Positions 466 to 36,160 of a DNA stretch of 64,000 bases are shown one piece after another. How positions within the stretch are numbered: position 1 is the stretch's first letter; every line of letters begins with the position of its first letter. Under the pieces are notes generated by a model. The model was not told where the DNA came from and did not search any database. It saw only the letters and a list, made by a program, of their open reading frames with translations. Both the position numbers and the translations under genes were made by a program. The stretch is from an uncultured virus (IMG/VR IMGVR_UViG_3300028805_000054) (taxonomy: Duplodnaviria > Heunggongvirae > Uroviricota > Caudoviricetes). The stretch lies in IMG/VR virus record IMGVR_UViG_3300028805_000054, one strand, 5' to 3'.

Positions 466-771
466 ATGAAAAGAAGGTCAGATTTTTCTAGGAGGTATTT
501 GTTTTATAGAATGATACCTTTTTTCGAACCTACTGATGGAAATAGTTTTGATCCTTCGGTAGATACTAGATTGACACTTAAAACGGTAGCTTTAGTGAAA
601 CCTGAAGTAGTAAGATTCATTGGAGAGAAAGTTCTGAGAATAGTACAGAAAATACCAAAAGAACAACGTAAAAATGAATATTGGATAAAAGATTCCTTAG
701 AGAAAGAAGCCATTCGTTTGTTTGAGAGTTTTCATCCTAAGGAGATAAAAATAGAGCTTAGTTATGAGTAA
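466..771 (+). CDS. hypothetical protein
   Basis: Operon-packed ORF overlapping the next start. Confidence 0.6.
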   Translation: MKRRSDFSRRYLFYRMIPFFEPTDGNSFDPSVDTRLTLKTVALVKPEVVRFIGEKVLRIVQKIPKEQRKNEYWIKDSLEKEAIRLFESFHPKEIKIELSYE

Positions 772-3610
772 AATATTGGCAATAGCGGACATACATCTAC
801 ATGATTATCCGCAGCGTAATAGTTTTCAATTTCAACGATTATATCAAGGATCAAGAATTGTAGCTAAAAATATTATTGAAGTAGGGAAGAGGGAAGGAGC
901 GAATTACATAGCGATTTGTGGTGATCTGATAGAGAAATCGATAATCAGACCGTACGTTATGGCAGAAGCATACAATTTCCTTCATACCATCATGTCAGAG
1001 TTCAAAGAAGGTTGGATTATCTGGGGAAATCATGATATAGATGCTAAGTCGTCAGATCAAGTAATGACAGATTCTTGCTTAGCTTTATTCCTTCCTCCCA
1101 ATCTTAAGTATATGCATCAACAGCAGATAGAACTGGAGGGAAAGATTTTGGGTTTTAACAATTGGCAGCCCGACATAGATCTGAGTTGGGTAAAAGGTGA
1201 GTTAGATATGTTATTTACTCACGCTAGGATATGTTATCAGGAAGGTTCAGACTTATATCAATCACAGTACTTAGATGAATCAAAGTTTAAGATTGCATTC
1301 TGTGGTGATATACATAGACCAGGACAACTAGGAAAATATGTCAGCATTGGTATCCCTCAAAGATGTAAGATGTCGGATGGAGAAAAATCGACCGGCGTAT
1401 TGATAGATCTTGAAACGGGAGATTGGAAATGGGTAGACCTGAATCCTAAAGATAATCTAATGAAATTCCAGTATGTGACAGTTCCGGAGCAAGAAGGATG
1501 GAATGAAGCTTTTAAGACCTGGAATATCTATAAGCCAAGTACCGATAACATGATAGATCCCTCTGCAAACATAAAAGTATCGGGGTGGGAGAAAATTGAG
1601 TCTTTGGTAGATGATGCTATAAAAAAGGCGTCTCTAGTAGAAGTTCATCAGCAAGTTTTAGCCTCCATCCCAAACTTAGATGCAGGGGAAGTAGATTTCA
1701 ATTTCACCCCAGTCCGTTTCTATTGTAAGAATTGGAGAAGTATAGACGAAGTTGAAATGTTTTTTGAAGAGGGAGATAAAATCCTGATTGTTGGTGAAAA
1801 TGGATCTGGTAAGTCTAGTCTCCTATCTGCCATTAAATATGCGTTCTGTGATGTTCGTTCTACTTCTGGTCTTTCCTCACTAAAGCCATTCATTCAATTT
1901 GGTACTAAGGATTGTGTAACAGAAGTAGAGTTTATGTATCAGGGAAATCGTTGTAAGCTGAGACGTGGAACAAAAGAATATGGTCTCTGGATAAACGAGG
2001 AGCCTATGAAATATAATAGTAAGGCAGATTTTGAAGCTGATGCACGCCGTAGATTCCCATTCATTGAGTATATGGAGGTAATGATTCACGACCAAGACCA
2101 TAACCAATTTATAGGAAGTCTTACCGGCGAGAGATTAGCAGAAATAATCAGTAAAGCTTTTAAACTAGACCGCATTGATACCTATAATGATGCTGCTTCT
2201 CTTATGCTCACTCAATTGGTAAAAGGAGCTGCAGAGTGGGAATCAAAGATAGGGGAGTCAAAGAAGGTATTAGGATTTATAAACAGCAAACTAGAATCAA
2301 TTGTCTTACCTACCAAAACAAAAGAAGAGTTGACGAAGGAAAAGGATGTTATGGTTGAGCTGCAGAGGAAAAATCGAGAGTGGAATATCTTTGTGTCTAC
2401 TTCTTCACGTCTTCAAGCTGGTATAGAAAGTAGGGAAGGTGAGAAGACTGAATTGCTGGAGAAGAAACGAGCGCAAAGAGAACCGTCGATAATAGATGCG
2501 GAGATAGAGAACCTAAGAAAAGAGATTGGAGTAAAGCAGGAACGTCTTATTGAATTGGGCGGACTTAAGAATGCAATCAGGGTAAAGGAATCAGAATTAA
2601 CCCGCATAATCTCCGACGGTAAAAATCTGCGCTCGGAATTTACAGCAATAGATCCCACCAAGATTTCCTATTGTCCTACTTGTCGCCAGCAGATTATCCC
2701 CTCTCCAGAAACTATCGAAGCCTTAAAAACAAAGAAGGAAGAGATTGGAAAGAAGCTGGAGGAAAAGTTGGCTGAATATGGAAAGGTTAATCAGGAGTTA
2801 GAGCAGATGAAGAACGATTTTGGAAACTCAGACTCCGAAATTCAGGCTATCAACGGAGAGATAGGGGGATTGAATGGAGAGATTACAAAGAGGATGTCAG
2901 AAATACGAGTCGGGAAGGAAATTGAGGAGAGACTAGGGAGAGTAGAACGTGAGCTGACCGAATGGAAAACTAAATTAGCGAATCTTGGTGCTCCCGAAAA
3001 AGTTGAACTTCCTGATGATTTTATGGAGAAGATGTCAACAATAGAGTCTGGCTTATCATCATGGAACCTTTGGGAATCTGGGGTGAAAGACAAAGAGGAA
3101 CAAGAGAAGAAAGTTAAGGCCTATGAGAAAGAAGTGGAAGGTAATCGAGAACAACAGGATAAACTCAAGTCTTATATAAAACTGACAGGACCAACGGGAG
3201 TTATTTATGAGGAGGTAATGAAAAAACTAGTCTCCCAATTCAATGACAATACCGTATCCTATGAAGTTAATGTCAGAGAGTTTAGAAAGAAAGATCACCT
3301 CACTCTCGTACCACAATTCTTTAATAATGGAAATTGGGTATCTTATGAGGCTTGTAGTGGTGGTCAGAAAACGGTACTCGACATTCACTTCTTGAGCAAA
3401 ATTATAAATCGTGTTGGAATATTAATCTTGGATGAATTTTTGAAACACCTTGATCCTTCTAACCACGATCTCTGTCTCGATATGATTCAGAGTATGAGTA
3501 TTGGTTGTACCTTTGTCTCATCTCATATGGAATCTATCGCAGCATTCAATAATAAAACGTGTAGCTTGTCTCTTAATCAGTCAGGCCTCACGCAGATGAA
3601 ATTTAGTTAA
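764..3610 (+). CDS. Fused Mre11/SbcD nuclease - Rad50/SbcC ABC-ATPase
   Basis: N-terminal metallophosphoesterase motifs (ADIH, CGD, GNHD, THA, GDIH); Walker A GENGSGKS; coiled coil with zinc hook CPTC; signature CSGGQ; Walker B LILDE; H-loop SSH. Confidence 0.92.
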   Translation: MSKILAIADIHLHDYPQRNSFQFQRLYQGSRIVAKNIIEVGKREGANYIAICGDLIEKSIIRPYVMAEAYNFLHTIMSEFKEGWIIWGNHDIDAKSSDQVMTDSCLALFLPPNLKYMHQQQIELEGKILGFNNWQPDIDLSWVKGELDMLFTHARICYQEGSDLYQSQYLDESKFKIAFCGDIHRPGQLGKYVSIGIPQRCKMSDGEKSTGVLIDLETGDWKWVDLNPKDNLMKFQYVTVPEQEGWNEAFKTWNIYKPSTDNMIDPSANIKVSGWEKIESLVDDAIKKASLVEVHQQVLASIPNLDAGEVDFNFTPVRFYCKNWRSIDEVEMFFEEGDKILIVGENGSGKSSLLSAIKYAFCDVRSTSGLSSLKPFIQFGTKDCVTEVEFMYQGNRCKLRRGTKEYGLWINEEPMKYNSKADFEADARRRFPFIEYMEVMIHDQDHNQFIGSLTGERLAEIISKAFKLDRIDTYNDAASLMLTQLVKGAAEWESKIGESKKVLGFINSKLESIVLPTKTKEELTKEKDVMVELQRKNREWNIFVSTSSRLQAGIESREGEKTELLEKKRAQREPSIIDAEIENLRKEIGVKQERLIELGGLKNAIRVKESELTRIISDGKNLRSEFTAIDPTKISYCPTCRQQIIPSPETIEALKTKKEEIGKKLEEKLAEYGKVNQELEQMKNDFGNSDSEIQAINGEIGGLNGEITKRMSEIRVGKEIEERLGRVERELTEWKTKLANLGAPEKVELPDDFMEKMSTIESGLSSWNLWESGVKDKEEQEKKVKAYEKEVEGNREQQDKLKSYIKLTGPTGVIYEEVMKKLVSQFNDNTVSYEVNVREFRKKDHLTLVPQFFNNGNWVSYEACSGGQKTVLDIHFLSKIINRVGILILDEFLKHLDPSNHDLCLDMIQSMSIGCTFVSSHMESIAAFNNKTCSLSLNQSGLTQMKFS
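2452..2649. repeat. Ladder nested inverted-repeat element 1 (inside Rad50 coiled-coil CDS)
   Basis: attgctg 2452/cagcaat 2643; cgagcgca 2468/tgcgctcg 2628; accgtcg 2482/cgacggt 2614; atgcgg 2496/ccgcat 2602. Confidence 0.85.
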
Positions 3611-6310: not shown

Positions 6311-6321
6311 CGTATATAAGG
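6311..6321 (-). promoter_or_regulatory. Phage promoter-like motif CCTTATATACG
   Basis: Member of the recurrent CCTTATWNRTR motif at operon starts. Confidence 0.65.
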
Positions 6322-6322: not shown

Positions 6323-6480
6323 TTTCCTGGTGTGGTTGGGTCGCGCAAGTATAAGAAACACACAAGATTTTTCACGGCTGTAATTATAAACTTGTGTAAA
6401 AATAAATACAGGAGAAAATTAACGGCCGTATTTTTAATCCTCCTGTAATTAAATTCTTGCGCAAAAAAAACACCAGGAAA
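6323..6480. repeat. Branched ladder element 2 (intergenic)
   Basis: tttcctggtgt/acaccaggaaa; gcgcaag/cttgcgc; arm acacaag-(acggctgt)-cttgtgt; arm tacaggag-(acggccgt)-ctcctgta. Confidence 0.9.
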
Positions 6481-8824: not shown

Positions 8825-10018
8825 ATGATTATTAGAAGTAAATGTGAAAACGATGTTTACAAGTGGAACATGAGTTATCTTATGATGATGAAATTCCCTA
8901 ACATGAAAGTTCGGTTCAAGTTTAAAAATAGAAGACCGGGCGAAAAGTTTGATCAAAAGTTTATTGAGGACATGAAGTTAGAACTCGCAAAACTTAGAAT
9001 GTTGAAATTAAGTGACGCAGAGAAAGCTTTCATGAAAAAGAATTTCTGGTGGATTCCGGGATGGTACTTCGACTGGTATCAACATGCGGATATTTTTAGA
9101 CCAGAAGCAGTTAAAATGTGGCTGGATGAAAACTCAGAATTCCAATGTGAGGTGGAAGATCTTGGATATATTGTGACCTTCTGGGAAACAAACATACTTC
9201 CTATCTTTGCTGAACTTAGAAATAGGACCTACGGATATACTTATGATAAGATGAATGAATCCGAAGCCCTCGAGTTGGTAAGAGAGCAGATAAATCTCTC
9301 TAACGAGCATCAACTTAAGTTTTCTGAGTTTGGATTGAGAAGAAGATTCAGTGCAACCTGGCAAGATAAGGTGGATGATATTATTAAAGCTGAAGCTAAA
9401 TATTGTGTAGGTAATAGTAATGTTTATGAAGCTTATCGTTTAGGGCAGAAAATTAGCGGTACACAAGCTCATGAAATTTATATGGCCTATAATGCTATTT
9501 ATGGTTATCGTGAGGGTAATTATAAGTGCGTAAAGGATTGGATGGAAGTATTCAACGGACATGCTGGTATTCTTTTAGGAGATACTATTGGACTTGATTC
9601 TTTCCTGAAATGTCTTACTACTTTGTATGCTAAAGCTAGTTCTGGTTATCGTCATGATTCTGGACCTTGGGAAGAAGCTACAACAAAGTATATTAAACGA
9701 CTCAAGGAACTTTATGTCAATCCTCTTCACAAATCAATCATATATTCAAACAGCATTAATATGTGGGACCTTGATGATATTGGAAATAATGTGAGAGGTA
9801 GAGTCGGAGATTTTGCTGGTGGTATGGGTGGAGCATTTACAAATAATATTCCAAGCCTTAAGCTAGCGAATCCGAATATTGTAATGAAATCTGACATGGT
9901 TCAGCTTGATGCAAATTCCTTCCCAGCTAATACAGTGAAAGTACCTGATGAGCCGGGTAAAGAAATGGGGGATCCGAAAGAGGTTGAATACTGTAAATAT
10001 GTAACAGAGCGATTATGA
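8825..10018 (+). CDS. pncB: Nicotinate phosphoribosyltransferase
   Basis: DVYKWNM, EFGLRRRFS, GNSNV, GTQAHE (phospho-His motif), GYRHDSG. Confidence 0.88.
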   Translation: MIIRSKCENDVYKWNMSYLMMMKFPNMKVRFKFKNRRPGEKFDQKFIEDMKLELAKLRMLKLSDAEKAFMKKNFWWIPGWYFDWYQHADIFRPEAVKMWLDENSEFQCEVEDLGYIVTFWETNILPIFAELRNRTYGYTYDKMNESEALELVREQINLSNEHQLKFSEFGLRRRFSATWQDKVDDIIKAEAKYCVGNSNVYEAYRLGQKISGTQAHEIYMAYNAIYGYREGNYKCVKDWMEVFNGHAGILLGDTIGLDSFLKCLTTLYAKASSGYRHDSGPWEEATTKYIKRLKELYVNPLHKSIIYSNSINMWDLDDIGNNVRGRVGDFAGGMGGAFTNNIPSLKLANPNIVMKSDMVQLDANSFPANTVKVPDEPGKEMGDPKEVEYCKYVTERL

Positions 10019-10639: not shown

Positions 10640-11226
10640 AAACTATATATCCAAACGAGAAGGTGAAATTGACTAGGGGAGGAAGAAATGCTGACAAAAT
10701 AACAGTCACAGAATTCAAGAACCTAATCAAAGCAATCTATGAGAAACTGAAGAGCAAGGATAATGAACTGGAAGACTATGAATGGAATAGCCCGGCATGG
10801 ATATTCTATTTCTGTGATCGCCTCCCTAAAATTGCCAAAGACTTAAAGATTGATTTTGACTTTGAGAATATCCTTGTCTACCAAAATAAAGAATATAGTT
10901 TCAAGGAGTCAGATATTAAGATCACCCGAGGAGGAACACCATATCTAGAACTTTGGTGTGGTGGAGATTGGGAGAAAGGATTAATTGTCTATCTTTACCC
11001 TTCCGATAACACCCTGAGAGCCTATATTCCGACTAAAGGAAATAATGTCAGGAAAGATCTTAAGTGTGTATTTGGTGGGGAATCAGAAATGTACTCGGAT
11101 GTCTCTCGTCTTGCATACCTGAAGAAATATGCGAAGGAAAGTTTAGACGGAGAGGGAATAGACACGAAAGAGAATCCTGACTGGTGTTTGGAAGATTTTG
11201 AAACAAGATTAGGAGAAACATTATGA
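10636..11226 (+). CDS. hypothetical phage protein
   Basis: GGDWE...LRAYIPTKGN motif. Confidence 0.7.
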   Translation: MKTIYPNEKVKLTRGGRNADKITVTEFKNLIKAIYEKLKSKDNELEDYEWNSPAWIFYFCDRLPKIAKDLKIDFDFENILVYQNKEYSFKESDIKITRGGTPYLELWCGGDWEKGLIVYLYPSDNTLRAYIPTKGNNVRKDLKCVFGGESEMYSDVSRLAYLKKYAKESLDGEGIDTKENPDWCLEDFETRLGETL

Positions 11227-11486
11227 GTAACAAAACAGACCTAGAGCTAATCCCGGAAGTTGCAAAGCTAAGGGAACTAATGAGAGGAACGAGATTAAGG
11301 GAAGGGAAGTTAGTGGTGAAAGATTTGCCAGCTTACGTGAATTCTTTGAAGAGCGTTATCCCAATCTACCAAGAACTGAAGGACCGAGAACATTATAAGA
11401 ATACAGCTAGATATGTAGGATTTAAATTAGAAATGATTACAGAAGTTTTAAAGAATAATTATGGAATCGAACTGGAGGAAAAATAA
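11223..11486 (+). CDS. hypothetical protein
   Basis: Operon ORF. Confidence 0.6.
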   Translation: MSNKTDLELIPEVAKLRELMRGTRLREGKLVVKDLPAYVNSLKSVIPIYQELKDREHYKNTARYVGFKLEMITEVLKNNYGIELEEK

Positions 11487-12066
11487 ACCATACCTTGCCT
11501 TTAACCCGTCAGAAACAAAAAAGACTGGAGATGGATATGGTTGGTTAGTGTCGAAAGAAGATTGTAGAACTTTGTATGACGGTAGATATTGTGCTGTCTC
11601 TGGATTCTTCTATGCGGTAGTTAATGGTCAATATTCTGTGTTAGCCGAAAAACGTGGGGAAGGAACGCCAGATTTTCAAGGATGTTGGTGTTGTCCCTGT
11701 GGTTTCTTGGAAGGTGATGAAAATGCTAAAGAAGGAATCAAACGAGAAACTTACGAAGAATGTGGAGTAGAAATAGGGTATGATAAGATTAAATTTGTAG
11801 AAGCTGAAACTGAACCTGCCCTCTGTAATAATGGAAATGTAACTCTAAGACACACCGGATTTTTAGGGAAGCAACCGAAGATAGAGAGACCTGACCTATT
11901 AGAAACGGAAGAACGAGGAGGAGAGAAGAAAGAAGTTGCGGAAGTAGCCTGGATTCCTATCTCCCATGTCAATCGTTATGAGTGGGCTTTCGGACATGGA
12001 GAGGTGATTAAAGAATATGCTGAGAATCGTTTTTGGAGGTGGATCTTAGAATTACTGTACAGATGA
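11461..12066 (+). CDS. Nudix hydrolase (ADP-ribose pyrophosphatase-like)
   Basis: Nudix box GFLEGDENAKEGIKRETYEECGV; C-terminal WAFGH. Confidence 0.85.
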   Translation: MESNWRKNKPYLAFNPSETKKTGDGYGWLVSKEDCRTLYDGRYCAVSGFFYAVVNGQYSVLAEKRGEGTPDFQGCWCCPCGFLEGDENAKEGIKRETYEECGVEIGYDKIKFVEAETEPALCNNGNVTLRHTGFLGKQPKIERPDLLETEERGGEKKEVAEVAWIPISHVNRYEWAFGHGEVIKEYAENRFWRWILELLYR

Positions 12067-12247
12067 TTAACCCATATTATTACGTCAAGGAGAAAGGGAG
12101 ATTGATTCTGAAGATAAACTTTTTTGAATGGATCGAACGAGTGAGAGAAGAGCATAAGAAATAATAAACTTTTGAAGGAGATTGATGAGAAGTAGCTCTA
12201 AGTAATTTTTATAATTACATTAGTTACGGTCAATCTCTTTTTTTTTA

Positions 12248-12464
12248 TTCCACCGTATTCTTCCCCCCGTATTTTCAACCAGCATAAATAAAAACACAAG
12301 ATAAAATACGGCCGTTAAGATTCTTGTGTAAGGATTTGCTGGAGTAATATTGGGAGGAGATTTAAGGTTGAAAAATTACGGCCAAGTTATTTTTATAATA
12401 ACGATAAAAAACCCAACCTTATCATAACTCCCAATTATATTATCACGGAGGATTAACGGTGGAA
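12248..12464. repeat. Branched ladder element 3 (between convergent terminators)
   Basis: ttccaccgt/acggtggaa; ccagca/tgctgg; acacaaga-(acggccgt)-tcttgtgt; attgggag/ctcccaat; taaggttg/caacctta. Confidence 0.9.
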
Positions 12465-12508
12465 ACATGAGTGATCACTGAAATTTATGGTATTGTCCGG
12501 AGTGTGAG

Positions 12509-12541
12509 AAAAAAAAAAGAGTAACTATTAAAGCCACTCTT
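12509..12541 (-). terminator. Intrinsic terminator
   Basis: Minus-strand AAGAGTGGC..GTTACTCTT stem with G-U pairs, then a long U tract. Confidence 0.7.
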
Positions 12542-12651
12542 GTCTATCCGGAATCCTAGCCAAAACTTTCATCCTGATTATTCCTCTCTTATTCCCGGTC
12601 TTAAGATATATCAACATAATCTTTTTGTTAATATTAATAATTCAATCATAT

Positions 12652-12972
12652 TCATGCCTTATGTTGCGTTTCGTTAAATTTAATATTTGCTTTACTCACG
12701 ATTCGTATCTTACGAATAGGTACAAGACTAAGTTCACGAAGATTAACCTTAAACTTTTCCTTCACAAACTCTCTGATTGAGTAAGAAGCTTCCAACATTT
12801 TACATTCAGAGCGACAATCTGTATTATACATACAATTCCCACACTGATGAAATTTCCACTCATTCACATCAACTACCAGAGTATATAAGATAGGTCGTTT
12901 ATGAGATTTGGCCACATCTACAATAATCTGTCGTTCCCCTGCTTCTCTTTCTCTAACTCTCAAAAATTTCAT
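12652..12972 (-). CDS. hypothetical protein with Cys cluster
   Basis: CGNC...C...C. Confidence 0.65.
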   Translation of the reverse strand: MKFLRVREREAGERQIIVDVAKSHKRPILYTLVVDVNEWKFHQCGNCMYNTDCRSECKMLEASYSIREFVKEKFKVNLRELSLVPIRKIRIVSKANIKFNETQHKA

Positions 12973-13303
12973 CTAGTTCTGCATCCTCTAAGCCTAATTC
13001 CTTCATTACTCTCTCTATAGCCTCATCTTCTAATCGGCTTGGTAAAACATAATCTTCTCCATCCCACCACCATACTGAAGGCTGGCCAAACAGGGAGGTC
13101 ATTAATTCAGGAGTTTCACACAGACTCAGAAAATTTTGTCGGATAAGGAGAATAATGTTGAATATTCTTTTCTTTCCTGGCCATAGCGTTTCTTTGAATA
13201 TCTTGACCAGTACCTCAACAAATCTGCTCAATATCTCCTCTCTCTCCATCCACCAAATATCCTCTTCTACGTTATAATTCATCCATATTTTGTTTTTATT
13301 CAC
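12953..13303 (-). CDS. hypothetical protein
   Basis: Follows promoter motif 13303-13313; exact start uncertain. Confidence 0.65.
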   Translation of the reverse strand: MNKNKIWMNYNVEEDIWWMEREEILSRFVEVLVKIFKETLWPGKKRIFNIILLIRQNFLSLCETPELMTSLFGQPSVWWWDGEDYVLPSRLEDEAIERVMKELGLEDAELDEIFES

Positions 13304-13316
13304 ACATATAAGGATT

Positions 13317-13471
13317 CCGCCGTATCCTCTTCCTTCCGTAATAAAAAAATAAACAGGGATCTTCTTTGCGTACGCCTGATTTTTCCTGTTTGATTAGTTC
13401 CCAGCATAAAGAAAAACGGCCGTAAAGAAATATGCTGGGGAAGAGAAACGGAAGATTTTATGAGACGGCGG
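13317..13471. repeat. Branched ladder element 4 (intergenic)
   Basis: ccgccgt/acggcgg; cttccgt/acggaag; aaacagg-(gcgtacgc)-cctgttt; cccagcata-(acggccgt)-tatgctggg. Confidence 0.92.
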
Positions 13472-13503
13472 GAAATAAAAAAGAGCAACTATTAAAGTCA
13501 CTC

Positions 13504-13956
13504 TTAATCATTGAAACCAGCTAAGTCCTCTTCTCCTTCTTCCCATCCATCATCTCCTACCTCAATTAGCTTGGTGAAACAGAAATAAGCGATTGTATTT
13601 CCGGGTTTATACTTTAGCTCCGTTTTCCCTAAGTTGATGATATGGATAAAAACCTGCGATCTATCTACTACCACCGACATATGAAGGATTGGATGGGTTT
13701 CACTGAGTTTTCCATTCCACATTTCCATAACATCACTTCCCTTATTCGGATATGTATGATGAATGGGTATAATAATGAAATCTTTAAAAAGTCTAGGAAA
13801 ATGAAGGCCGGTAGGAATTAGGGTATCATCTCCAGGCATTAACACACATTCAGGCAATCCATAAGGCATATAAATCTTGAGGGCATTTGTTCCAGTATCT
13901 TCCTCCGGGCCCTTAACACTCCAATTATCTAAGATTTCATATTTCACTCGTCTCAT
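13504..13956 (-). CDS. Degenerate trimeric dUTPase-like protein
   Basis: LMPGDDTLIPTGL, IHIINLG and KPGNTIA resemble the dUTPase scaffold; catalytic RSG and GxID motifs absent. Confidence 0.55.
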   Translation of the reverse strand: MRRVKYEILDNWSVKGPEEDTGTNALKIYMPYGLPECVLMPGDDTLIPTGLHFPRLFKDFIIIPIHHTYPNKGSDVMEMWNGKLSETHPILHMSVVVDRSQVFIHIINLGKTELKYKPGNTIAYFCFTKLIEVGDDGWEEGEEDLAGFND

Positions 13957-13982
13957 ATCTCTCCGTAAAATTAAAAATTTTA

Positions 13983-14405
13983 CTAACGTTCAATGTTTTC
14001 CTCAAGATTTCTTCCTTCGTCAGACAATCTTTCGTTCACGGCTTTTCTTCGTCTTTCTAATGTCCAACCACTTCCGAATTCTAGATCAAAAGGTATTCTC
14101 TTCTTTGTCTTCACCCAACCTTCCAAATATTTCTCTTCTCGACGTTTCCAAGGCCAACCAACTCTCCGAACTTGAATTTCTTTTTCCTCTGGCTCGTTTT
14201 CCCAATAGCCATAAGGAGTTCTGTGGGTATAGAGATCATAAACGATTTCAGTTCCGGTTATCCTTAGTGTTCCATTCTCTCCAGTCACCACCTTAACATT
14301 CTCTAAAAAATGGCCACCAAAAACCTGGAAGGAATAGATCGGATTATTAAACACTACCGCATCCTTATCCCTTACATAACCAAATTTATATTCTTCTGTT
14401 TTCAT
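13983..14405 (-). CDS. hypothetical protein
   Basis: Operon ORF. Confidence 0.65.
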   Translation of the reverse strand: MKTEEYKFGYVRDKDAVVFNNPIYSFQVFGGHFLENVKVVTGENGTLRITGTEIVYDLYTHRTPYGYWENEPEEKEIQVRRVGWPWKRREEKYLEGWVKTKKRIPFDLEFGSGWTLERRRKAVNERLSDEGRNLEENIER

Positions 14406-14965
14406 TTTGTCTTCTTGTATAAAACTTCTTTCGGATCTTCCTTGAATAAAATCATCATAGCCTTCTTTATCTTTCCGGGAGTTATAATAATTGATCTCCC
14501 ATTGAACATTCTATGCGTGTAACCTGTCCCTCTATTCCTGCACTCTTTTTTAATAGCATGATAGAAAGAAACTAAGCGGTCAATATTAGAAAACCCAGAC
14601 GTAAAATATTCTTTCTCCATGCTGGTTAAGTCAAAAATAGAATAACCAAAGAACATTAATAAATCTGAACGTGCATCATCAACTGGGTTTCCACGTCTTA
14701 GAAAACTTACCATCTTTTCTTCATCTACCTCCTTCCATTCAAGATTATTATCAACAATTCTATCTGAAGGAACTGAGTAAATCTTCTTTGTAACAATCGG
14801 CCAGTTATTTCTCATTAAGATTCTCTCTAATCCTATTCTCTTATTACCCTTCTCTACAGTATCGGTTAGGTAAAATTGTGAGAGACCTTCCACTGTTTCT
14901 AGTTTATAATATATCCTTAATTTTCCGTAAATCTTTATTACTGCATACCAATATCTTTTCTTCAT
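14402..14965 (-). CDS. hypothetical protein
   Basis: Downstream of promoter motif 14987-14997. Confidence 0.7.
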   Translation of the reverse strand: MKKRYWYAVIKIYGKLRIYYKLETVEGLSQFYLTDTVEKGNKRIGLERILMRNNWPIVTKKIYSVPSDRIVDNNLEWKEVDEEKMVSFLRRGNPVDDARSDLLMFFGYSIFDLTSMEKEYFTSGFSNIDRLVSFYHAIKKECRNRGTGYTHRMFNGRSIIITPGKIKKAMMILFKEDPKEVLYKKTK

Positions 14966-14986
14966 CGAGTAATATTCTTCTTATTA

Positions 14987-15033
14987 CACATATAAGGAAA
15001 TAAACGTTCCTTTTTCTAAAAACCTTATAAATA
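14987..15033. promoter_or_regulatory. Back-to-back promoter motifs (14987-14997 minus; 15023-15033 plus)
   Basis: cacatataagg / ccttataaata. Confidence 0.7.
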
Positions 15034-15552: not shown

Positions 15553-15756
15553 CTTTAACAGAGCGAAGAATAGTCCAGCATAATCGTTTCTCGCTTATTT
15601 TTTTTGCTCCGCTGATTAATAAAGCGAGGGTAGGGGATGCTGGGAATAATGTGAAGGCGGAGAAAATCAAGTCGGAGTTTTTACGGCCGTCATTATTTTC
15701 CGACTTTAAAGATCCCGCCTCTGATTGTGTCTGCTCTGTGATTAAGTTCGCGCGGT
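15518..15756. repeat. Branched ladder element 5
   Basis: accgcgcga/tcgcgcggt; acagagc/gctctgt; ccagcat/atgctgg; ctcgctt/aagcgag; aggcgg/ccgcct; aagtcgga-(acggccgt)-tccgactt. Confidence 0.92.
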
Positions 15757-15814
15757 GTCAAAAATAAAATAAAAGAAAAGACTAGAATCGCTCCTAATCT
15801 TCTCTCTTTTTTTT

Positions 15815-20147: not shown

Positions 20148-20177
20148 TGTTGGCGTCTCTTATAAAAGAAGACTATA

Positions 20178-20411
20178 CTGTGGGGAAGAAACAGAGGGAA
20201 AGTGGAGGGCGTGAAAATTTAGGGTGGGATTTTCAAGGAGGAATTTTTTGCATATGCCTTTTTCACCTCCTTATTCTTCCACCCTTTTCCCTTACGCCAA
20301 AATGTGATAGAGTCGGAAGAAAAACACAAGAAATAACTGTGTGCGAAGCGATAAAGAAACTTGTGTGAAAATCTCGACTCTCCATAAATCCCTCTGTAAA
20401 AATTCCCACAG
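20178..20411. repeat. Branched ladder element 6 (between divergent promoters)
   Basis: ctgtggg/cccacag; acagaggga/tccctctgt; ggcgt/acgcc; agggtgg/ccaccct; aaggagg-(gcatatgc)-cctcctt; agagtcg/cgactct; acacaag-(gcgaagc)-cttgtgt. Confidence 0.92.
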
Positions 20412-24599: not shown

Positions 24600-24717
24600 C
24601 ACGCCGGTCCATATTACAAGCGAGAACCGTCTAAATTACCACACAATTTTTGAACACGCGAAGCAAGAACCTAATTGTGTTTCTAAAGTAAATTTTCAAT
24701 TTACATATTCCGGCGTG
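24600..24717. repeat. Ladder element 7 (between divergent promoters 24585-24595 and 24724-24734)
   Basis: cacgccgg/ccggcgtg; acacaatt-(gcgaagc)-aattgtgt; gtaaatt/aatttac. Confidence 0.8.
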
Positions 24718-24947: not shown

Positions 24948-25517
24948 ATGGAAGATTATTATAAAACTAAAGTAGGAATATTCTTAGGAAGTTTTGATCC
25001 TTTTCACACTGGACATAAGGAAGCAGTTTTGGAAGCCCTAAGACGTGGAATGGATTCGGTTTGGGTTGTGCCGTCTGTTTGGAATCCTTGGAAAGATAAG
25101 CAGCCAGTTCCCATCGATGAAAGATTCTGGATTGCTCACTATGAATTGGAGAAAATAGAAAACGCCAGAGTCTTAGCCGTTGTAACCGATCCTGACCCAA
25201 CCGACGGAAAATGGTATTCGGTAGATCAACTAAGGAAAATAATCAGGGGGTATGGATCTAAGAACTATGAATTTTGGATTATCGGCGGAAAAGATGTAAC
25301 CGAGGAAATAGAGAACTGGAAAGAAGGGGATTGGATCTTGGGAAACTTTAAAACCTTGGAAATAGAATTCAAACATCAAGGAGAAGAGGTTGAAAAAATT
25401 AGTAGTACCCAAATTAGAGAGTGGATTGGGAAACGAGAATGGGATAAACTGAAAGGATTAGTATGCCCAAAATCGATTAAGTACATTCGAAATCATGAAC
25501 TCTACGTTACTGGCTAA
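24948..25517 (+). CDS. nadD: Nicotinate/nicotinamide mononucleotide adenylyltransferase
   Basis: GSFDPFHTGH (HxGH), NPWK, IIGG, ISSTQIR. Confidence 0.88.
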   Translation: MEDYYKTKVGIFLGSFDPFHTGHKEAVLEALRRGMDSVWVVPSVWNPWKDKQPVPIDERFWIAHYELEKIENARVLAVVTDPDPTDGKWYSVDQLRKIIRGYGSKNYEFWIIGGKDVTEEIENWKEGDWILGNFKTLEIEFKHQGEEVEKISSTQIREWIGKREWDKLKGLVCPKSIKYIRNHELYVTG

Positions 25518-26296: not shown

Positions 26297-26446
26297 TAAA
26301 AGGATCTCTACTGATGTTAGAGAAAAGAGAGCTAAAGTTTAAAATACGCTTTAGCGGATTTTGTGAAAGACTGTGATGTAATCCAGGCTTTCATTTGTTT
26401 CAAAACATTAATCGTTATAATAGAATTATAACTAAAATTAACAATT

Positions 26447-28597
26447 ATGGAAAAGAAAGATATTATTGTACCTAAAGGAATAAGGTACATTGGAAATTGG
26501 AAAGAGTTTGACCTTGATAAATATAACAGCCCTTATATAATAAATAAAACACTTACGGGTTGTGGATTTACAGAGCATTGCTTGACTAATGATAAAGATA
26601 TTGTACTAATATCTCCTAGACGGTTTCTTCTTGAAAATAAAGAAGAGCAACATTCTGGAGACGTCTACTATTTCAGAAATGATAATGAAGTTTCCGTTGA
26701 TTTTGAATTAGAAATTGATAAAGATGACGTTAAGTCTATCAAAGAAAAGGCAGAGGAAACTGAGGACTCTAAGAATAAAACTTTAGAGAATCTTGATCGT
26801 ATAAAGAGAAATCTGAGGAGTGCTTACTTAACTTTTAAAAAGAATAATCCAAGTAAGCCATTCAAGATACTTGTAACATATGACTCTTTCAAACATGTTA
26901 AGGATGTTCTTAAAAATATCAAGAAAGAAGGCAGTGTCTCATACTTTGATACGGACAAGGACAGTGTTGTAAAGGCTGAAACTGAATTTGATAATTTCTT
27001 TTGTGTGGTTGATGAATTTCAGTCTATTTTCATTGATGCACGTTTCAAATCAGAAGCTGAAATAACACTTCTTAAAGAATTGGATGGTTGTAAGAGATTA
27101 TGCTATGTAAGTGCTACTCCTATGCTCGACAAGTATCTAGAGATGCTACCAGAGTTTAAAGATCTTCCTTATTATGAGCTGGATTGGGCAACAGAAGACC
27201 CAGGACGAATAAAGAAACCAAAAATTGAAATTAAGTTTACAAGATCACTTAATGAAGAGGCCAAAGCAGTAATTCATAGTTATCAGAATAAAAGATATGA
27301 GACTCGATTAAACTCAGAGACCGGGGATTTAGTAGATTCTAAAGAGGCAGTTCTATTCTTCAACTCTGTGGCTGGTATTTGTCAGGTAATCAGGACAAAT
27401 AGATTACACCTAGAGGAATGTAATATTATATGTGCTGACACTTCAAAAAATCAAGAATCTATTAGGAAAGCTTTAAACTCTGTTCTTAAGAAGGATGCTG
27501 AAGAGAAGGGGGAAACTGTAAAATATTTTACAAAGAATGATAAAGTAGTAGGTAAAATTCCAGTCAAAGGAGAGAAACATAAATTATTCACATTCTGTAC
27601 TCGAACTGTATATCTTGGTGCAGATTTCTATTCAACTAATGCTAGAACCTTTGTATTCTCAGATGCTAATATAGACTGTTTGAGTGTAGATATTAGTATG
27701 GACTTAGAGCAGATATTAGGTAGACAAAGGCTTATAGAGAACCCTTGGAAAGATTATGCTAAAGTGTTTGTTCGGACTGTTTCTAAGAAAAATATAACTA
27801 CTGAAGGGGAATTTAAAAAGAAATTAAACGCTAAGGTTAAAAATACTGAGCGATTATTAAATTCCCATAAAGAAGTAAGTTTCGAAAATAAAAAAGCTTT
27901 GGCTGGAGTATATCTAGAAAGGGCTAAAGTACAACACTATCGAAACGATTATATTTCAGTAAGAGTTATAAAAGACTGGGAAACTAATGAAGTCAAAGAG
28001 CTTATCCCAGAATTCAACAATCTTATGATGATTTCTGATATGCGAGCTTTCGAGGTTCAACAGATAGATTATAAAGATAGATTCACTGTATTCTCTACTG
28101 TTAATCAGAATGGTATCGAGGGAGCAACAATTAAGTCATGCGAATTGGTAGAAGAGTTTAATAAAATTGGTGATACTACAAAAAGACTAAAATTTCTAGT
28201 TGACATTAGTGAAGATGATCTTTTAAACAAAGATGACATAGTAGCATTTTTAGAATTAATCCCATCTAAATACAAAGATTACTATTATGATGTTGGCCCT
28301 GAAGTTATAAAGAAATGTAGATGTTTCGAGTCAGAAGTTAAGAAAGAGTGGAGACGACAAAAATCTAATGGAAAAATAGAGGATCAAGTTGTTTCTAGAA
28401 CATATGATCTCTTTAAAGTTGGAAAGAAGTACTCTAATAAATATATTAAGGATAAACTTAAAGACTTATATCAAGAACTGGAGTACAATCAAAAAGCCAA
28501 AGCTACTGATCTTGAACTCTTATACATTGTAAAAGCCATTAAACTGCAAGAAGATGGTAAGTGGGTTAATGGTCTAGAGATATTAGGTAAGAGATAA
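26447..28597 (+). CDS. SF2 helicase-like protein, paralog A (716 aa)
   Basis: Motif I-like TLTGCGFT, Ia LISPRR, II VVDEFQ, III SATP, V TRTVYLGADF, VI EQILGRQR; C-terminal KAKATDL domain. Confidence 0.75.
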   Translation: MEKKDIIVPKGIRYIGNWKEFDLDKYNSPYIINKTLTGCGFTEHCLTNDKDIVLISPRRFLLENKEEQHSGDVYYFRNDNEVSVDFELEIDKDDVKSIKEKAEETEDSKNKTLENLDRIKRNLRSAYLTFKKNNPSKPFKILVTYDSFKHVKDVLKNIKKEGSVSYFDTDKDSVVKAETEFDNFFCVVDEFQSIFIDARFKSEAEITLLKELDGCKRLCYVSATPMLDKYLEMLPEFKDLPYYELDWATEDPGRIKKPKIEIKFTRSLNEEAKAVIHSYQNKRYETRLNSETGDLVDSKEAVLFFNSVAGICQVIRTNRLHLEECNIICADTSKNQESIRKALNSVLKKDAEEKGETVKYFTKNDKVVGKIPVKGEKHKLFTFCTRTVYLGADFYSTNARTFVFSDANIDCLSVDISMDLEQILGRQRLIENPWKDYAKVFVRTVSKKNITTEGEFKKKLNAKVKNTERLLNSHKEVSFENKKALAGVYLERAKVQHYRNDYISVRVIKDWETNEVKELIPEFNNLMMISDMRAFEVQQIDYKDRFTVFSTVNQNGIEGATIKSCELVEEFNKIGDTTKRLKFLVDISEDDLLNKDDIVAFLELIPSKYKDYYYDVGPEVIKKCRCFESEVKKEWRRQKSNGKIEDQVVSRTYDLFKVGKKYSNKYIKDKLKDLYQELEYNQKAKATDLELLYIVKAIKLQEDGKWVNGLEILGKR

Positions 28598-29722: not shown

Positions 29723-30631
29723 CTATTTTTTATTTCTCCACCCATTCACAAAGTCATTCCCTGTGATAGGTCCTTTTTCTCCCGCCCTCCATAATGTTTT
29801 TATTCCAAGCCAACAATCTCCGGTCATTATATAAAGATCTTTCCCAATGATTAATTCTGTTCCGGGTTCATTCTTTTTATTTGATATCATCCCATCTATC
29901 CAAGCATCCAATATTTTACATTCTTGTCCAAACACGAGAGATAGTGCTCCGGGTTTTGGTGATAATCCTCTTATAAAATCCAGTACACCCAACGCAGGTT
30001 CTCCCCAATCTATCCAAGTATTTGCTCTTGTCAATTTTGGTGCGATCTTTTCTTTCCCTGTTGTTTCCTGTATTGTTCCCTCACCGTCTCCGCATAATAT
30101 TTTAGTAATAGTAGTAATACAGAAGGTGCCAGCATAGAGGGACATGTTTTCATAAAGTTTTCCAAAGTTGAAGTAGGGATTAATGATGAATTTAACCTGA
30201 TGTATTATTCTCCCAGTATCTATCCCTGAGTCTAGCCAAAATGCGGATAATCCAGTTTCTATTTCTCCATTTATTATAGCCCAATTAATAGGTGCTGCTC
30301 CTCTATAATCTGGAAGATATGAGGCATGGATATTAAAGGTCCCTAGTTTTGGAAAATCATAGACGGTTGGTGGTAGAATTTTGAAAGCTACTACGATTCC
30401 TAAGTTTGGTTTAGTTTGTTTAAGTTTTTCAATCAATCCTTCATCATTCTTTGGGTCTTTAGTTTGGTAGATAGGGAGGAACAGTCTTTTAGCTTCTCTC
30501 TTGACTGGTGTATTTTCTATTCCTGTCACTACTAATACCACCTTTATATCTCTTTCTACCAACTCAGACAAAACTGGGACGGAAAAACTCGGACTACCAT
30601 AAAATACTACTCTTAATTCTTCTTTTTTCAT
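29723..30631 (-). CDS. fmt: Methionyl-tRNA formyltransferase-like
   Basis: RVVFYGSPSFSV, NIHASYLPDYRGAAPINWAI, IDTG, IRGLSPKPGA. Confidence 0.88.
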   Translation of the reverse strand: MKKEELRVVFYGSPSFSVPVLSELVERDIKVVLVVTGIENTPVKREAKRLFLPIYQTKDPKNDEGLIEKLKQTKPNLGIVVAFKILPPTVYDFPKLGTFNIHASYLPDYRGAAPINWAIINGEIETGLSAFWLDSGIDTGRIIHQVKFIINPYFNFGKLYENMSLYAGTFCITTITKILCGDGEGTIQETTGKEKIAPKLTRANTWIDWGEPALGVLDFIRGLSPKPGALSLVFGQECKILDAWIDGMISNKKNEPGTELIIGKDLYIMTGDCWLGIKTLWRAGEKGPITGNDFVNGWRNKK

Positions 30632-30645
30632 CTCGTCTATAAGGA

Positions 30646-30729
30646 GTTGGGGAGATTATGCAAGATTCTCACACAAGCTCTTCACCCTCCGTCTTGTGTC
30701 CGTTTCCTCTTGCATTAAAAATCCCCAAC
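30646..30729. repeat. Ladder element 8 (between terminator and promoter 30634-30644)
   Basis: gttgggga/tccccaac; atgcaaga/tcttgcat; acacaag/cttgtgt. Confidence 0.88.
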
Positions 30730-30752
30730 AAAAAAAAAGACGAGGAAAGTTT

Positions 30753-32156: not shown

Positions 32157-32751
32157 ATATTGTTCTGGATAGTTCGGTTAGGCTTTTCTTTCCCATTCCG
32201 TTCTTCCATTCAATATTAAGGATTTGGGTTATATCTTCATCTACATCTTTCCATTCCCACCCTGACCATCTAGCTTCCGACAATTTTACAAGGATAGCGT
32301 GTTCTGGTGTTGGTGAATTAAACTGTGAAACCTGCTCGAGAACCTTCCAGAAAAAATCAGACTGGAAAAGTACGGCCGGAGATTTTAAGGCAGCTCTCCA
32401 TATTCCTTCTATTCTCCAAGCCACTCCATTCCAATCTCCCGGTTCTATTCCCCTTAATATTCCTTCGGTTGGTTTTTGTTCAGTTAAGGTCAAGAATTCA
32501 AAGTCAGTTTTAGTCGCATCATCTCTTCCTTCTCCCGTTGTTCCTGCCACAAAAGATTTCTCGGCCGTTATAAAATCCCAGTCTAAGATCCTGGAAGAAT
32601 GGGTGAGCAGGGAATAATTGGCTTTAGTATCTTTCATTTCCATCACCACCTCTATTTCCCCTTGTCCTATTTCAAGTTCTTCCAATAATAGTATGAGTGA
32701 TTCTTTATCTCTCAGTGTTACTTTTATTTTCCTAGTTGTATTGTCTTCCAT
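32143..32751 (-). CDS. hypothetical protein
   Basis: Operon ORF. Confidence 0.7.
   Translation of the reverse strand: MEDNTTRKIKVTLRDKESLILLLEELEIGQGEIEVVMEMKDTKANYSLLTHSSRILDWDFITAEKSFVAGTTGEGRDDATKTDFEFLTLTEQKPTEGILRGIEPGDWNGVAWRIEGIWRAALKSPAVLFQSDFFWKVLEQVSQFNSPTPEHAILVKLSEARWSGWEWKDVDEDITQILNIEWKNGMGKKSLTELSRTIYGRN
32331..32611. repeat. Ladder element 9 (inside CDS)
   Basis: cctgctc 32331/gagcagg 32605; cttccag 32344/ctggaag 32591; agactgg 32359/ccagtct 32578; acggccg 32372/cggccgt 32562; ggcag 32389/ctgcc 32544. Confidence 0.88.
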
Positions 32752-33946: not shown

Positions 33947-34516
33947 TTATCCTGGGAGTTGCATTTGCTGAAGATCTTGAAATTTTTGGATATAAGAACC
34001 AGCGCAAAGTATGACATCCTTAACCGAAGTTTTACCGGTAAGAAGAGGAACACCATACTTCTCACAATAAAGATGAATCTGAGAATACATCTGATTACCT
34101 TCCCCGCATCTAACCACCAATTTTCCTGACGTGACTAGAGACCCGAATTCTAAGATTGGGGTGGGAGATACAGATTTATTCATAATGTTTAAGAATACAA
34201 AATCAGCCATATCCATCATCGCCATTCTCCACTGCATGGTCGCAACAAATTCGGGGTTTTCCAACGTCGGGGCTAATCTATTGGTGGGAGGAACATGCGG
34301 GTTGAAAATAATCCAGTTAGCTCCCTTAATCATCAGCAAACCTTTTAGAGGATCAGACAATTTTTCCAATCCCTCTACAAATTTAGTCTGCCAATCATTC
34401 TCGGAGGAACCAAAATCCATAGTACCACCGAGATAAACTTTAATAGCGTCATTTGTAACCACCGGCAGCTGATCGCCAGGGTACAAGACGGTAATTTTCT
34501 CACTTACTTGCAACAT
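33947..34516 (-). CDS. Nucleoside 2-deoxyribosyltransferase-like protein
   Basis: VYLGGTMD...DWQ...IFNP...SPTPILEFG...KLVVRC. Confidence 0.75.
   Translation of the reverse strand: MLQVSEKITVLYPGDQLPVVTNDAIKVYLGGTMDFGSSENDWQTKFVEGLEKLSDPLKGLLMIKGANWIIFNPHVPPTNRLAPTLENPEFVATMQWRMAMMDMADFVFLNIMNKSVSPTPILEFGSLVTSGKLVVRCGEGNQMYSQIHLYCEKYGVPLLTGKTSVKDVILCAGSYIQKFQDLQQMQLPG
34103..34301. repeat. Ladder element 10 (inside CDS)
   Basis: cccgcat/atgcggg; ccaccaa/ttggtgg; gacgt/acgtc; cccgaatt/aattcggg. Confidence 0.8.
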
Positions 34517-35799: not shown

Positions 35800-36140
35800 A
35801 ATAATTAAATTTAATTAATAACTTCATTCCCCTAAGGGAAGTTAGGCTCCCATCGTCAATGTTATTATGTGGTTTAATTGTTATCAACACTTTCCCTACC
35901 CCATAGGAATGTTTAATCAATAACCGTAGAGCTACAGACTTGGAAGAATTTACATCCGTAGGTACCTATTGTATAGAAGGTTGAATACAAAACAACTCCT
36001 CTACATTCACACATAACGTAGTTCATCTCTTTCTATCATCTCGTGATACATAGAGACTTCACTTAGACTAATCAGCATAGGGCATTTACATTCCCTCGAC
36101 CAGATATTTTTATAATATCGTTCAGTCGTGGGTTACTGAC
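34504..36140 (-). mobile_element. Non-autonomous IS200/IS605-family IscB (OMEGA) element
   Basis: Begins GTCAGTAACCCACGACTGAA on the minus strand; ends with subterminal hairpin CCCACAGCTAAAGCAGTGGG; no tnpA. Confidence 0.85.
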
Positions 36141-36160
36141 TTACTTGTAACATTATATTA
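35810..36160 (-). ncRNA. omega-RNA (HEARO-like) scaffold with 5' guide of about 16-20 nt (36141-~36160)
   Basis: Non-coding region upstream of iscB with typical motifs (GTCAGTAACCC, GATTAGTCTAAG, CTACGTTA, GCTCTACGG, ACATTGACGATGGG). Confidence 0.8.

Follow-up and report, generated by a model that had tools for sequence, protein, structure and literature searches.

A family of branched ladder palindromes with a recurrent tip word in the spacers of an uncultured virus genome

The locus of elements 3 and 4

The subject of this report is a pair of branched palindromes in a stretch of 64,000 nucleotides of DNA (the window) from an uncultured virus (IMG/VR record IMGVR_UViG_3300028805_000054). They are referred to as element 3 (12248-12464) and element 4 (13317-13471). 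An original prediction, made from the sequence alone, had described them as ladders whose hairpin loops present self-complementary 8-nt apices between unpairable A-rich spacers. This observation holds: both are branched imperfect palindromes, built of perfect 7–10 bp G+C-rich rungs with non-pairing A/T-rich spacers between them. All strings and coordinates that had been quoted are present, among them CCCAGCATA-AAGAAAA-ACGGCCGT-AAAGAAA-TATGCTGGG at 13400-13439, where the A-rich spacers that flank the apex in arm 2 of element 4 are 7 nt each. The placement was likewise confirmed, as element 3 lies between the convergent terminators 12174-12246 (+) and 12517-12541 (-), and element 4 between the terminator 13481-13505 (-) and the promoter-like motif 13307-13313, a putative promoter. 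Metagenome contigs supplied six related DNA loci for comparison (L001-L006), of which L004 and L005 nearly duplicate each other and L006 is a distant relative. The features of the locus are listed below, the ladders without a strand.

12174..12246 (+): intrinsic terminator, a long hairpin with a T9 run (RNA fold -21.5 kcal/mol); ends the plus-strand NUDIX/small-ORF (open reading frame) operon and bounds element 3 on the left
12248..12464: element 3, a branched ladder defined from folds, the stem list and the L001-L003 consensus; outer stem TTCCACCGT/ACGGTGGAA at 12248-12256 and 12456-12464
12263-12270 and 12445-12451: second rung of element 3, imperfect, enclosing two arms
12279..12342: arm 1 of element 3; rungs CCAGCA/TGCTGG and ACACAAGA/(T)CTTGTGT; tip ACGGCCGT at 12308-12315
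12349..12435: arm 2 of element 3; rungs ATTGGGAG/CTCCCAAT and TAAGGTTG/CAACCTTA
12378-12405: variant tip of arm 2 of element 3, ACGGCC followed by a 6-bp mini-hairpin; L002 carries this module twice, oppositely oriented
12517..12541 (-): intrinsic terminator of the minus-strand genes at 12652-13282; near-copy of 13481-13505
13274..13282 (-): start of the 109-aa gene, ATGAATTAT; right copy of an imperfect direct repeat around the terminator-ladder-promoter block, from comparison with the empty site of L004
13307..13313 (-): promoter-like motif CCTTATA(TA), 3 nt downstream of the outer stem of element 4; predicted promoter
13317..13471: element 4, a branched ladder; outer stem CCGCCGT/ACGGCGG at 13317-13323 and 13465-13471
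13333-13339 and 13448-13454: second rung of element 4, CTTCCGT/ACGGAAG
13351..13391: arm 1 of element 4; rung AAACAGG/CCTGTTT; tip GCGTACGC at 13368-13375, which reads GCATACGC in L004/L005
13400..13439: arm 2 of element 4; rung CCCAGCATA/TATGCTGGG; tip ACGGCCGT at 13416-13423; rung and tip identical in L004/L005
13481..13505 (-): intrinsic terminator of the 150-aa gene (13504-13956); G-U pairs form only in the minus-strand RNA
13503..13511 (-): ATGATTAAG, left copy of the flanking direct repeat; seems to be a remnant of the start of the next gene, as that start appears at the L004 empty site

Both elements fold into two outer stems around two hairpin arms. When folds were computed on single strands, element 4 reached -52.3 kcal/mol as RNA (z = -3.64, none of 200 shuffles as good) and -23.2 kcal/mol as DNA (z = -2.47, two of 200 shuffles as good), while element 3 gave z = -3.61 as RNA and -33.4 kcal/mol as DNA (z = -5.03, none of 200 shuffles as good). 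Read directly, element 4 carries G+C-rich boxes of 7–9 nt every ~16–17 nt over all of its 155 nt.

The tip word

The 8-nt word ACGGCCGT was found at 6422, 12308, 13416 and 15683, the four positions of the original prediction, which also placed GCATATGC correctly at 20250. Four copies compare with 0.07 expected, and none of 100 shuffles reached that number. Within the 64-kb window, to which the count inside and outside ladders was limited, all four copies sit at a hairpin tip, as do all six from the related loci; the word is enriched, with each copy a tip, which is what the original prediction had asked of it. Each of these ten copies is bracketed by a perfect inverted repeat of 6–10 bp at A/T-rich tip-to-repeat spacers of 3–10 nt (8–9 bp and 6–10 nt for the copies in the window), and a comparable inverted repeat was met at 1133 of 20,000 random window positions (5.7%). 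The tip is carried on seven different stem sequences. It is held unpaired; in several hairpins both flanking spacers are A-rich on the same strand and cannot pair together.

The most over-represented 6-mer palindrome of the window is CGGCCG, with nine copies against 3.9 expected (6423, 12309, 13417, 15684, 32373, 32562, 61870, 62101 and 21566). Ladders contain eight of these; four form tips, and the other four are paired rungs in two in-gene ladders (see below). A check for restriction-site avoidance showed no marked depletion of GGCC or other palindromes in the window.

The inventory of tips in the window family comprises ACGGCCGT (four times), GCGAAGC (twice), and ACGGCTGT (at 6374), GCATATGC and GCGTACGC (once each). 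ACGGCC followed by the mini-hairpin serves as a tip in three cases, once in the window and twice in L002. Self-complementarity is not general among these tips. The palindrome GCGTACGC rests on the single copy at 13368 (0.01 expected; present once in one of 100 shuffles), and since it reads GCATACGC in L004/L005, it is not conserved; ACGGCTGT, ACGGCC with its mini-hairpin and the non-palindromic GCGAAGC, which is the tip of two ladders, depart from the rule as well. GCGAAGC at 20343 and 24658 forms the tips of two ladder hairpins with ACACAA stems; these are two of its three copies in the window (1.15 expected), where the word as a whole is not enriched. The GCGAAGC heptamer forms an unusually stable mini-hairpin in DNA, a property that, if it applies here, would suit folding as DNA.

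It had been proposed that identical palindromic tips pair between distant elements as kissing loops and thereby loop or organise the genome, the looping being conjecture. The same 8-mer is indeed exposed in large unpaired loops at four sites within 9.3 kb, and it is conserved in relatives (L001, L003, L004 and L005). However, the tips of a double-stranded genome are paired with the other strand unless they are extruded, and several homologous tips, as listed above, are no longer self-complementary. Pairing at a distance is therefore regarded as very improbable, and as less likely than the reading preferred below.

A family of ladders between transcription units

Elements 3 and 4 are members of a modular family of branched ladder palindromes, about 110–235 nt long, in the spacers between transcription units. 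The window holds at least eight ladder elements, at 6323-6480, 12248-12464, 13317-13471, 15558-15739, 20150-20300, 20305-20385, 24603-24710 and 30632-30748. Apart from elements 3 and 4, they are:

6323..6480: family member with two outer rungs and two arms, tips ACGGCTGT and ACGGCCGT; adjoins CCTTATA at 6315-6321 (-); fold z = -4.08
15558..15739: family member with convergent genes on either side; arm CCAGCAT/ATGCTGG and arm AAGTCGGA/TCCGACTT with tip ACGGCCGT at 15683
20150..20385: two family members with divergent CCTTATA motifs on either side; tips GCATATGC (20250) and GCGAAGC (20343, on an ACACAAG/CTTGTGT hairpin)
24603..24710: family member with divergent CCTTATA motifs on either side; outer stem CACGCCGG/CCGGCGTG, inner hairpin ACACAATT/AATTGTGT with tip GCGAAGC
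30632..30748: family member with four concentric rungs, the innermost ACACAAG/CTTGTGT, around a minus-strand CCTTATA

Each ladder consists of one or two arms of the same perfect, G+C-rich rungs, and its A/T-rich spacers are matched in length on both sides. Outer stems of 7–11 bp close every element, in the way of the terminal inverted repeats of miniature inverted-repeat transposable elements (MITEs); in one subfamily these stems read CCRCCGT...ACGGYGG and are accompanied by a second CCGT/ACGG rung. The rung word ACACAAG/CTTGTGT recurs at 6360, 12294, 20324 and 30671 and, as ACACAATT, in 24603-24710, while CCAGCAT/ATGCTGG recurs at 12279, 13401 and 15575. Since rung words and tips are common to ladders in different combinations, stems and tips are combinatorial modules. 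The copies in the window have only words of 7–9 nt in common, and the closest cross-genome pair is 89.7% identical, short of the near-identity of MITE copies. The first scan by fold energy missed some ladders, and counts of stem clusters stayed at the level of simulations until concentric order was required. The fold of the whole region 15560-15780 is weak (z = -1.62, 13 of 200 shuffles as good).

The ladders were placed relative to terminators and to the motif CCTTATATA (TATATAAGG on the other strand), of which the window holds 13 copies against 1.4 expected. This motif lies 0–60 nt 5' of the first ATG in gene blocks that lack a Shine-Dalgarno sequence, with facing pairs at divergent starts, and it is likely, from its frequency and position, to be a phage-specific promoter. 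It has no -35 box, and sigma-70-like sites are not enriched in the window (68 against 63.5 in shuffles). Examples of the motif are found at 8450/8765, 14991/15023, 20141/20430, 24589/24724, 50726/50777, 55902 and 62853. Two copies sit 1–5 nt before an ATG, and some mRNAs are possibly leaderless.

Around element 4 the order is terminator (13481-13505), ladder, CCTTATA (13307-13313) and ATG (13282), the order of a composite of the PeSL type (discussed at the end). The remaining ladders follow terminators or are flanked by divergent promoter motifs or by convergent gene ends; a ladder placed in front of the motif CCTTATATA stops 1–6 nt short of it. From this placement, all intergenic members of the family are outside the predicted transcription units. 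They are not intrinsic terminators themselves, as no T-run follows their outer stems and separate terminators adjoin them. A ladder outer stem ends 0–6 nt upstream of seven of the 34 CCTTATA copies, with arms of at least 7 bp in six of the seven; random positions gave 523 of 5000 (10.5%). The terminators 12517-12541 and 13481-13505 (-) have the same loop, TTTAATAG, serve different genes and differ at stem positions with compensation; homologous terminators in L001-L003 and L006 co-vary too.

The proximity to promoter motifs raises the question of a duplex operator or enhancer, in which a dimeric phage regulator would bind the palindromic ACGGCCGT, the A/T flanks would aid bending, and the adjoining CCTTATATA promoters would be controlled. 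A palindromic G+C-rich core with A/T flanks suits such a site, promoter motifs adjoin six ladders, and in two elements the distance from tip to motif is 101–103 nt (6422 vs 6321; 13416 vs 13313). In L001, however, this distance is 70 and 143 nt, while element 3 and 15558-15739 have the tip and no promoter (convergent terminators lie on either side), and the L004 copy of element 4 is not followed by a promoter motif. Moreover, binding to the duplex leaves the complementarity and co-variation of many different rungs unexplained, which makes an operator improbable.

Conservation of pairing and tip

Element 4 and its copy in L004/L005 are 89.7% identical overall. The bases of the rungs and of ACGGCCGT are unchanged in L004 (70 of 70), against 16 changes among 88 spacer and loop positions (Fisher p = 6e-5). 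A single branched consensus was obtained from element 3, taken on the minus strand, together with the L001-L003 ladders, and in it seven of 38 pairs are changed on both sides with pairing kept. Homologous rungs read ACACAAG, ACACAAT, ATACAAG or ACACAAAAA, and the exact complement is present each time. Across the four to five genomes that supply this evidence, it was thus shown that the pairing and the ACGGCCGT word are selected and the spacers are not.

These results bear on the second suggestion of the original prediction, that the tip is recognised by a protein. A recognised tip fits the data, because the word is enriched at tips, the tip is unpaired, and ACGGCCGT was kept relative to the nearest relative while the spacers drifted.

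Portability and breakpoints between relatives

Terminator, ladder and promoter separate the 150-aa from the 109-aa gene in the window, L002 and L003. In L004/L005 the two genes are joined directly, and a copy of element 4 with exactly the same borders stands behind the second gene. The homology around this copy sets in with the T-run and outer stem and breaks off directly behind ACGGCGG, and in L004 no promoter motif follows the ladder. At the filled sites, an imperfect copy (9–12 nt, by eye) of the start of the second gene is seen on both sides of the block. This direct repeat brackets terminator, ladder and promoter jointly and not the ladder alone, as a MITE target duplication would. L001 and L002 have a ladder in common and diverge into different genes right after ACGGCG.AATCCTTATA, that is, outer stem plus promoter motif. 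A further junction, in L004, joins window position 62913 to 15004, between two promoter motifs. As far as these comparisons reach, they show the terminator-ladder-promoter block to be present or absent as a unit at one site, with homology breaking at ladder ends and promoter motifs. Gene order also differs between the window (60656-62913 and 14410-15004) and L004 (1-3009), with ~48 kb being elsewhere or absent in L004.

Hairpin modules are exchanged among ladders at different loci, as shown by a DNA contig of run X4 in which 32 other letters, supplying matching rungs, link arm 2 of element 3 to the tip module of window 6360-6383. The asymmetric tip module of ACGGCC and mini-hairpin is flipped between element 3 of the window and L002. 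By contrast, the ladder at 61869-62107, inside a gene, was ruled out as a discrete transferred unit, since sliding identity showed that the high-identity tract between the window and L004 extends past it.

Such mobility could be that of selfish hairpin elements, i.e., non-autonomous palindromic repeats in the manner of REP/BIME repeats (repetitive extragenic palindromes and their mosaics), MITEs or mitochondrial hairpins, which would sit in neutral inter-unit spacers and serve no phage function; a transposase or nickase would read the fold, hence the conserved rungs and tip. This possibility is unlikely but deserves serious attention. Ladders occur in every type of spacer (tandem, convergent and divergent), as discrete units with terminal inverted repeats, and one unit was seen in two genomic contexts. 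Their modules recombine among copies, hairpins are nested in hairpins, the asymmetric tip module was flipped between homologous arms, and one insertion is flanked by a direct repeat. On the other hand, the near-identical copies expected from recent transposition are absent from the window, where only 7–9 nt words are common to the copies, and the flanking duplication does not bracket the ladder's inverted repeats. No transposase beyond IscB was found in the 64 kb, and the surroundings of the IscB unit lack the ACGGCCGT hairpin. A search of 185,579 species genomes with the tip-variant module (ACGGCC and mini-hairpin) returned none.

Folding as DNA or as RNA

In all 11 elements compared, the fold energies of the plus and minus strands differ by no more than ~7 kcal/mol. 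G-U pairs number 0–8 of ~20–70 pairs per fold and are without strand bias; the terminators beside the ladders, by contrast, use G-U pairs that exist on one strand only. Since the strands fold equally and G-U pairs are few and unbiased, the comparison points to DNA rather than to a single RNA, and the question is left with a lean to DNA. At the Rfam gathering score, the only match in the whole window was HEARO at 35841-36140, and positions 12000-13700 gave none at E up to 1.

The alternative is that the ladders are RNA elements, transcribed by read-through or from unrecognised promoters, and act as processing sites, as 3' or 5' stabilisers or as small structured RNAs, possibly with kissing of tips within one element. 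The RNA folds are strong (-46 to -65 kcal/mol, z about -3.6 to -4.1), and a co-varying stem with a conserved loop is a classic RNA signature. L001 and L003 have ACGGCCGT on both arms of one element, and the two tips of 6323-6480 could pair 7+1. A contig of RNA library X3 (11805-12357) crosses the plus-strand terminator and covers arm 1, the left half of element 3, with no differences, although the X3 contigs show neither strand nor ends and DNA carry-over in the library is possible. All 30 bins were covered in this library, and the parts without listed cover, such as element 4, are uninformative. However, the ladders are located behind intrinsic terminators and upstream of outward-facing promoter motifs, which leaves no obvious transcript. 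Taken together with the lack of a strand preference, the near absence of G-U pairs (unlike the adjoining terminators) and the lack of Rfam matches, this makes a role as RNA quite unlikely.

Ladders inside genes

A search for concentric chains, defined as at least three concentric rungs, each of at least 7 bp with at least three G/C and with spacing matched on both arms, returned nine chains in the window against one in 40 Markov simulations; two control phages, sampled over 50 kb (Bacillus phage G) and 42.5 kb (a Rhizobium phage), had no such chain. Of the nine, eight fall within ORFs:

2452-2649: in-gene ladder
32344-32597: in-gene ladder
34103-34301: in-gene ladder
37016-37162: in-gene ladder
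46996-47213: in-gene ladder
56332-56578: in-gene ladder
58260-58428: in-gene ladder
61869-62107: in-gene ladder
1916-2128 and 2734-2956 of L006: in-gene ladders found by the same chain search

These ladders have three to four perfect G+C-rich rungs of 7–10 bp with a period of ~14–16 nt, which close a core of 100–150 nt. The genes concerned include a fused SbcD-SbcC nuclease gene, a nucleoside deoxyribosyltransferase-like gene whose domain spans the ladder, and a gene conserved in L004. Shuffling of synonymous codons within the genes abolished all eight chains in 30 of 30 replicates; the in-gene ladders are written into synonymous codons. No sequence common to the eight was found. The difference between sense and antisense folding equals that of control coding segments (-8.9, sd 8.3) and shows no strand preference. 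Since in-gene ladders occur both in the window and in L006, the rung-and-spacer architecture is a lineage-wide feature that is also present in transcribed DNA, which keeps the DNA and the RNA readings alive. For a double-stranded DNA phage, the in-gene ladders would be a rare example of coding sequence on which strong nucleic-acid structure is imposed.

It is conceivable, if rather unlikely, that the intergenic and the eight in-gene ladders form one genome-wide system of single-strand-folding marks, about one per 4 kb, read by dedicated machinery. Its task might be, for instance, to initiate or resolve recombination-dependent replication at hairpins; a hairpin nuclease, the fused SbcD-SbcC, is among the proteins encoded by the phage. 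Intergenic tips like ACGGCCGT would then be bound by protein, or paired tip to tip in two-armed elements, locking a three-dimensional fold.

A proposed role of the ladders as boundary and recombination modules

By analogy with PeSL cassettes, it is tentatively preferred, with less than even confidence, to regard the ladders as DNA-level boundary and recombination modules with a recognised tip. They would act as DNA, either as single-strand hairpins during replication and recombination or as cruciforms. As boundary modules of portable terminator-ladder-promoter cassettes, they might be preferred recombination joints at which blocks of genes are reshuffled, as has been proposed for PeSL cassettes, and the conserved tip would be the word read by a putative protein.

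Several observations weigh against this interpretation. Given the X3 contig, the ladders may be transcribed. An open loop of 20–24 nt with an 8-nt self-complementary tip is what a presented loop requires, whether in RNA or in single-stranded DNA, whereas a cruciform must forfeit all base pairs of its spacers. The ladder-type hairpins inside genes show that the architecture is not confined to untranscribed DNA. The adjacency to promoter motifs is only modestly above background once 6-bp arms are counted. A 140-aa gene (13983-14405) is missing from L004 at a plain junction without a cassette, and the breakpoints come from six related loci, two of them near-duplicates. Finally, a Pfam search of the 96 ORFs in the window found no reader protein, recombinase or transposase other than IscB.

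The non-coding DNA of large uncultivated gut phages has hardly been studied, and these phages are mostly dark matter. The ladders are a well-defined family of structured repeats at operon borders and genome seams, with selection on pairing and on one tip word. If they are recombination or boundary modules, portable regulatory cassettes would extend from T4-like phages to a very different lineage and in a structure that is far more elaborate. Should the tip be read by a protein or by a folded strand, the ladders would represent a new recognition system.

Source of the window and other genes

The window is taken to derive from a large uncultivated gut phage, its size being an estimate. It is phage-like, with many short ORFs arranged as alternating blocks, and the sequencing runs that contain the stretch carry ruminant gut metagenome labels. 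The 150-aa protein beside element 4 has 23 relatives in metagenome protein sets, one of which is encoded on a contig listed as 391,873 bases. Searches elsewhere gave nothing: no match was returned when 11000-15000 was compared with 50,697 phage records by megablast, when IMG/VR was scanned with the NUDIX protein and a 239-aa protein as guides, when an alignment of the 150-aa family was run against the 185,579 species genomes, or when an arm of element 4 served as an exact pattern in IMG/VR. A looser hairpin pattern matched 32 loci in IMG/VR, which were dropped as chance matches since all were G+C-rich contigs without A/T spacers.

Among the genes of the window are those for the fused SbcD-SbcC nuclease (764-3610), a nicotinate phosphoribosyltransferase, a NUDIX hydrolase and an Ig-domain structural protein, together with an IscB-type RRXRR+HNH protein and its HEARO RNA. 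The nuclease ORF (+, 948 aa) fuses an SbcD-like (Metallophos) and an SbcC-like (SMC/ABC ATPase) part; the best phage match (H1, Rhizobium phage RHph_TM39) has them as two adjacent genes. Auxiliary nucleotide and cofactor genes at 8825-10018, 11461-12066, 24948-25517, 29723-30631 and 33947-34516 encode the nicotinate phosphoribosyltransferase, the NUDIX hydrolase, a cytidylyltransferase-like protein, a formyltransferase and a nucleoside 2-deoxyribosyltransferase-like protein; these proteins may contribute to NAD salvage and perhaps to the modification of DNA bases.

Two ORFs of 716 aa (26447-28597 and 53748-55898) are preceded by nearly the same structured sequence (26338-26380 and 53680-53720, from folds) and probably represent a gene duplicated together with its leader; the ORF at 53748-55898 resembles a DEAD-like helicase gene of a Psychrobacter phage. 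The IscB unit (34504-36153, -) consists of the 431-aa protein and its HEARO/omega RNA (35841-36140). Of the two copies of a 15-nt direct repeat (14 of 15 identical), one stands directly 5' of the RNA scaffold (36139-36153) and the other where the downstream gene starts (34502-34516). The unit seems to be placed exactly where the nucleoside deoxyribosyltransferase-like gene begins, and the upstream copy of the repeat occupies the would-be guide position. The ends of the IscB/omega-RNA unit were considered as a source of the hairpins and dismissed, as they bear no resemblance to the ladders.

Comparison with known systems

A literature search on the tip word and on hairpin repeats of jumbo phages found nothing pertinent apart from the PeSL papers. 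The PeSL (promoter-early stem-loop) cassettes of T4-like phages combine terminator and promoter in one motif, mark the junctions of indels and replacements, and are proposed by their authors to serve as recombination linkers (PMC2839356, PMC4122927). The likeness is in intergenic composites of terminator hairpin and promoter that stand between small, poorly conserved genes at insertion, deletion and replacement junctions; a PeSL, however, is ~100 bp long and has one simple G/C stem-loop and a sigma-70-like promoter (PMC2839356). The structure here is a branched multi-rung palindrome of 110–235 nt with shared tip words, situated between a separate terminator and the non-sigma-70 motif CCTTATATA, and ladders also occur without any promoter. 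The ladders differ from PeSLs in promoter type and structure, in a phage not shown to be T4-like, and are not members of that family.

The mitochondrial hairpin elements and G+C clusters are similar in that G+C-rich hairpin repeats invade the A/T-rich intergenic DNA of a compact genome; they belong to another host system and are short single or double hairpins, not 150-nt branched ladders at operon borders (PMC2800124).

Like the ladders, REP/BIME repeats and MITEs are dispersed intergenic imperfect palindromes that form hairpins and nested modular mosaics, carry a short conserved word and are tolerated only outside genes. REPs are 20–40 nt long with a conserved GTAG, and MITEs have continuous terminal inverted repeats and target duplications. 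In the ladders, by contrast, pairing is limited to short rungs with long unpaired spacers, only words are common to the copies, and no partner transposase was seen. Size and word differ from those of REP/BIME repeats, and no HUH/RAYT domain was found in the 96 ORFs of the 64-kb window.

The ladders also resemble the attC sites of integrons, which are imperfect palindromes read as folded single strands, with two paired boxes per side, an unpaired spacer and a variable or branched terminus, and which border mobile cassettes. However, the attC core words are absent, the outer stems being CCRCCGT/ACGGYGG; no tyrosine recombinase, integrase or attI was seen in the window, and the cassettes here have their own promoter and terminator. 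The site of retroviral RNA kissing loops has a similar self-complementary G+C-rich word, flanked by purines, in a hairpin loop, but occurs once per RNA genome in a small loop, whereas the ladders occur several times per double-stranded DNA genome with loops of 20–24 nt and non-palindromic variants. Finally, ssoA-type origins of rolling-circle plasmids and the hairpin promoters of phage N4 are long imperfect DNA hairpins with a conserved tip word, active only when folded. They are strand-specific and are present once per replicon or as a few early promoters, whereas the ladders are present in many copies whose two strands are equivalent.

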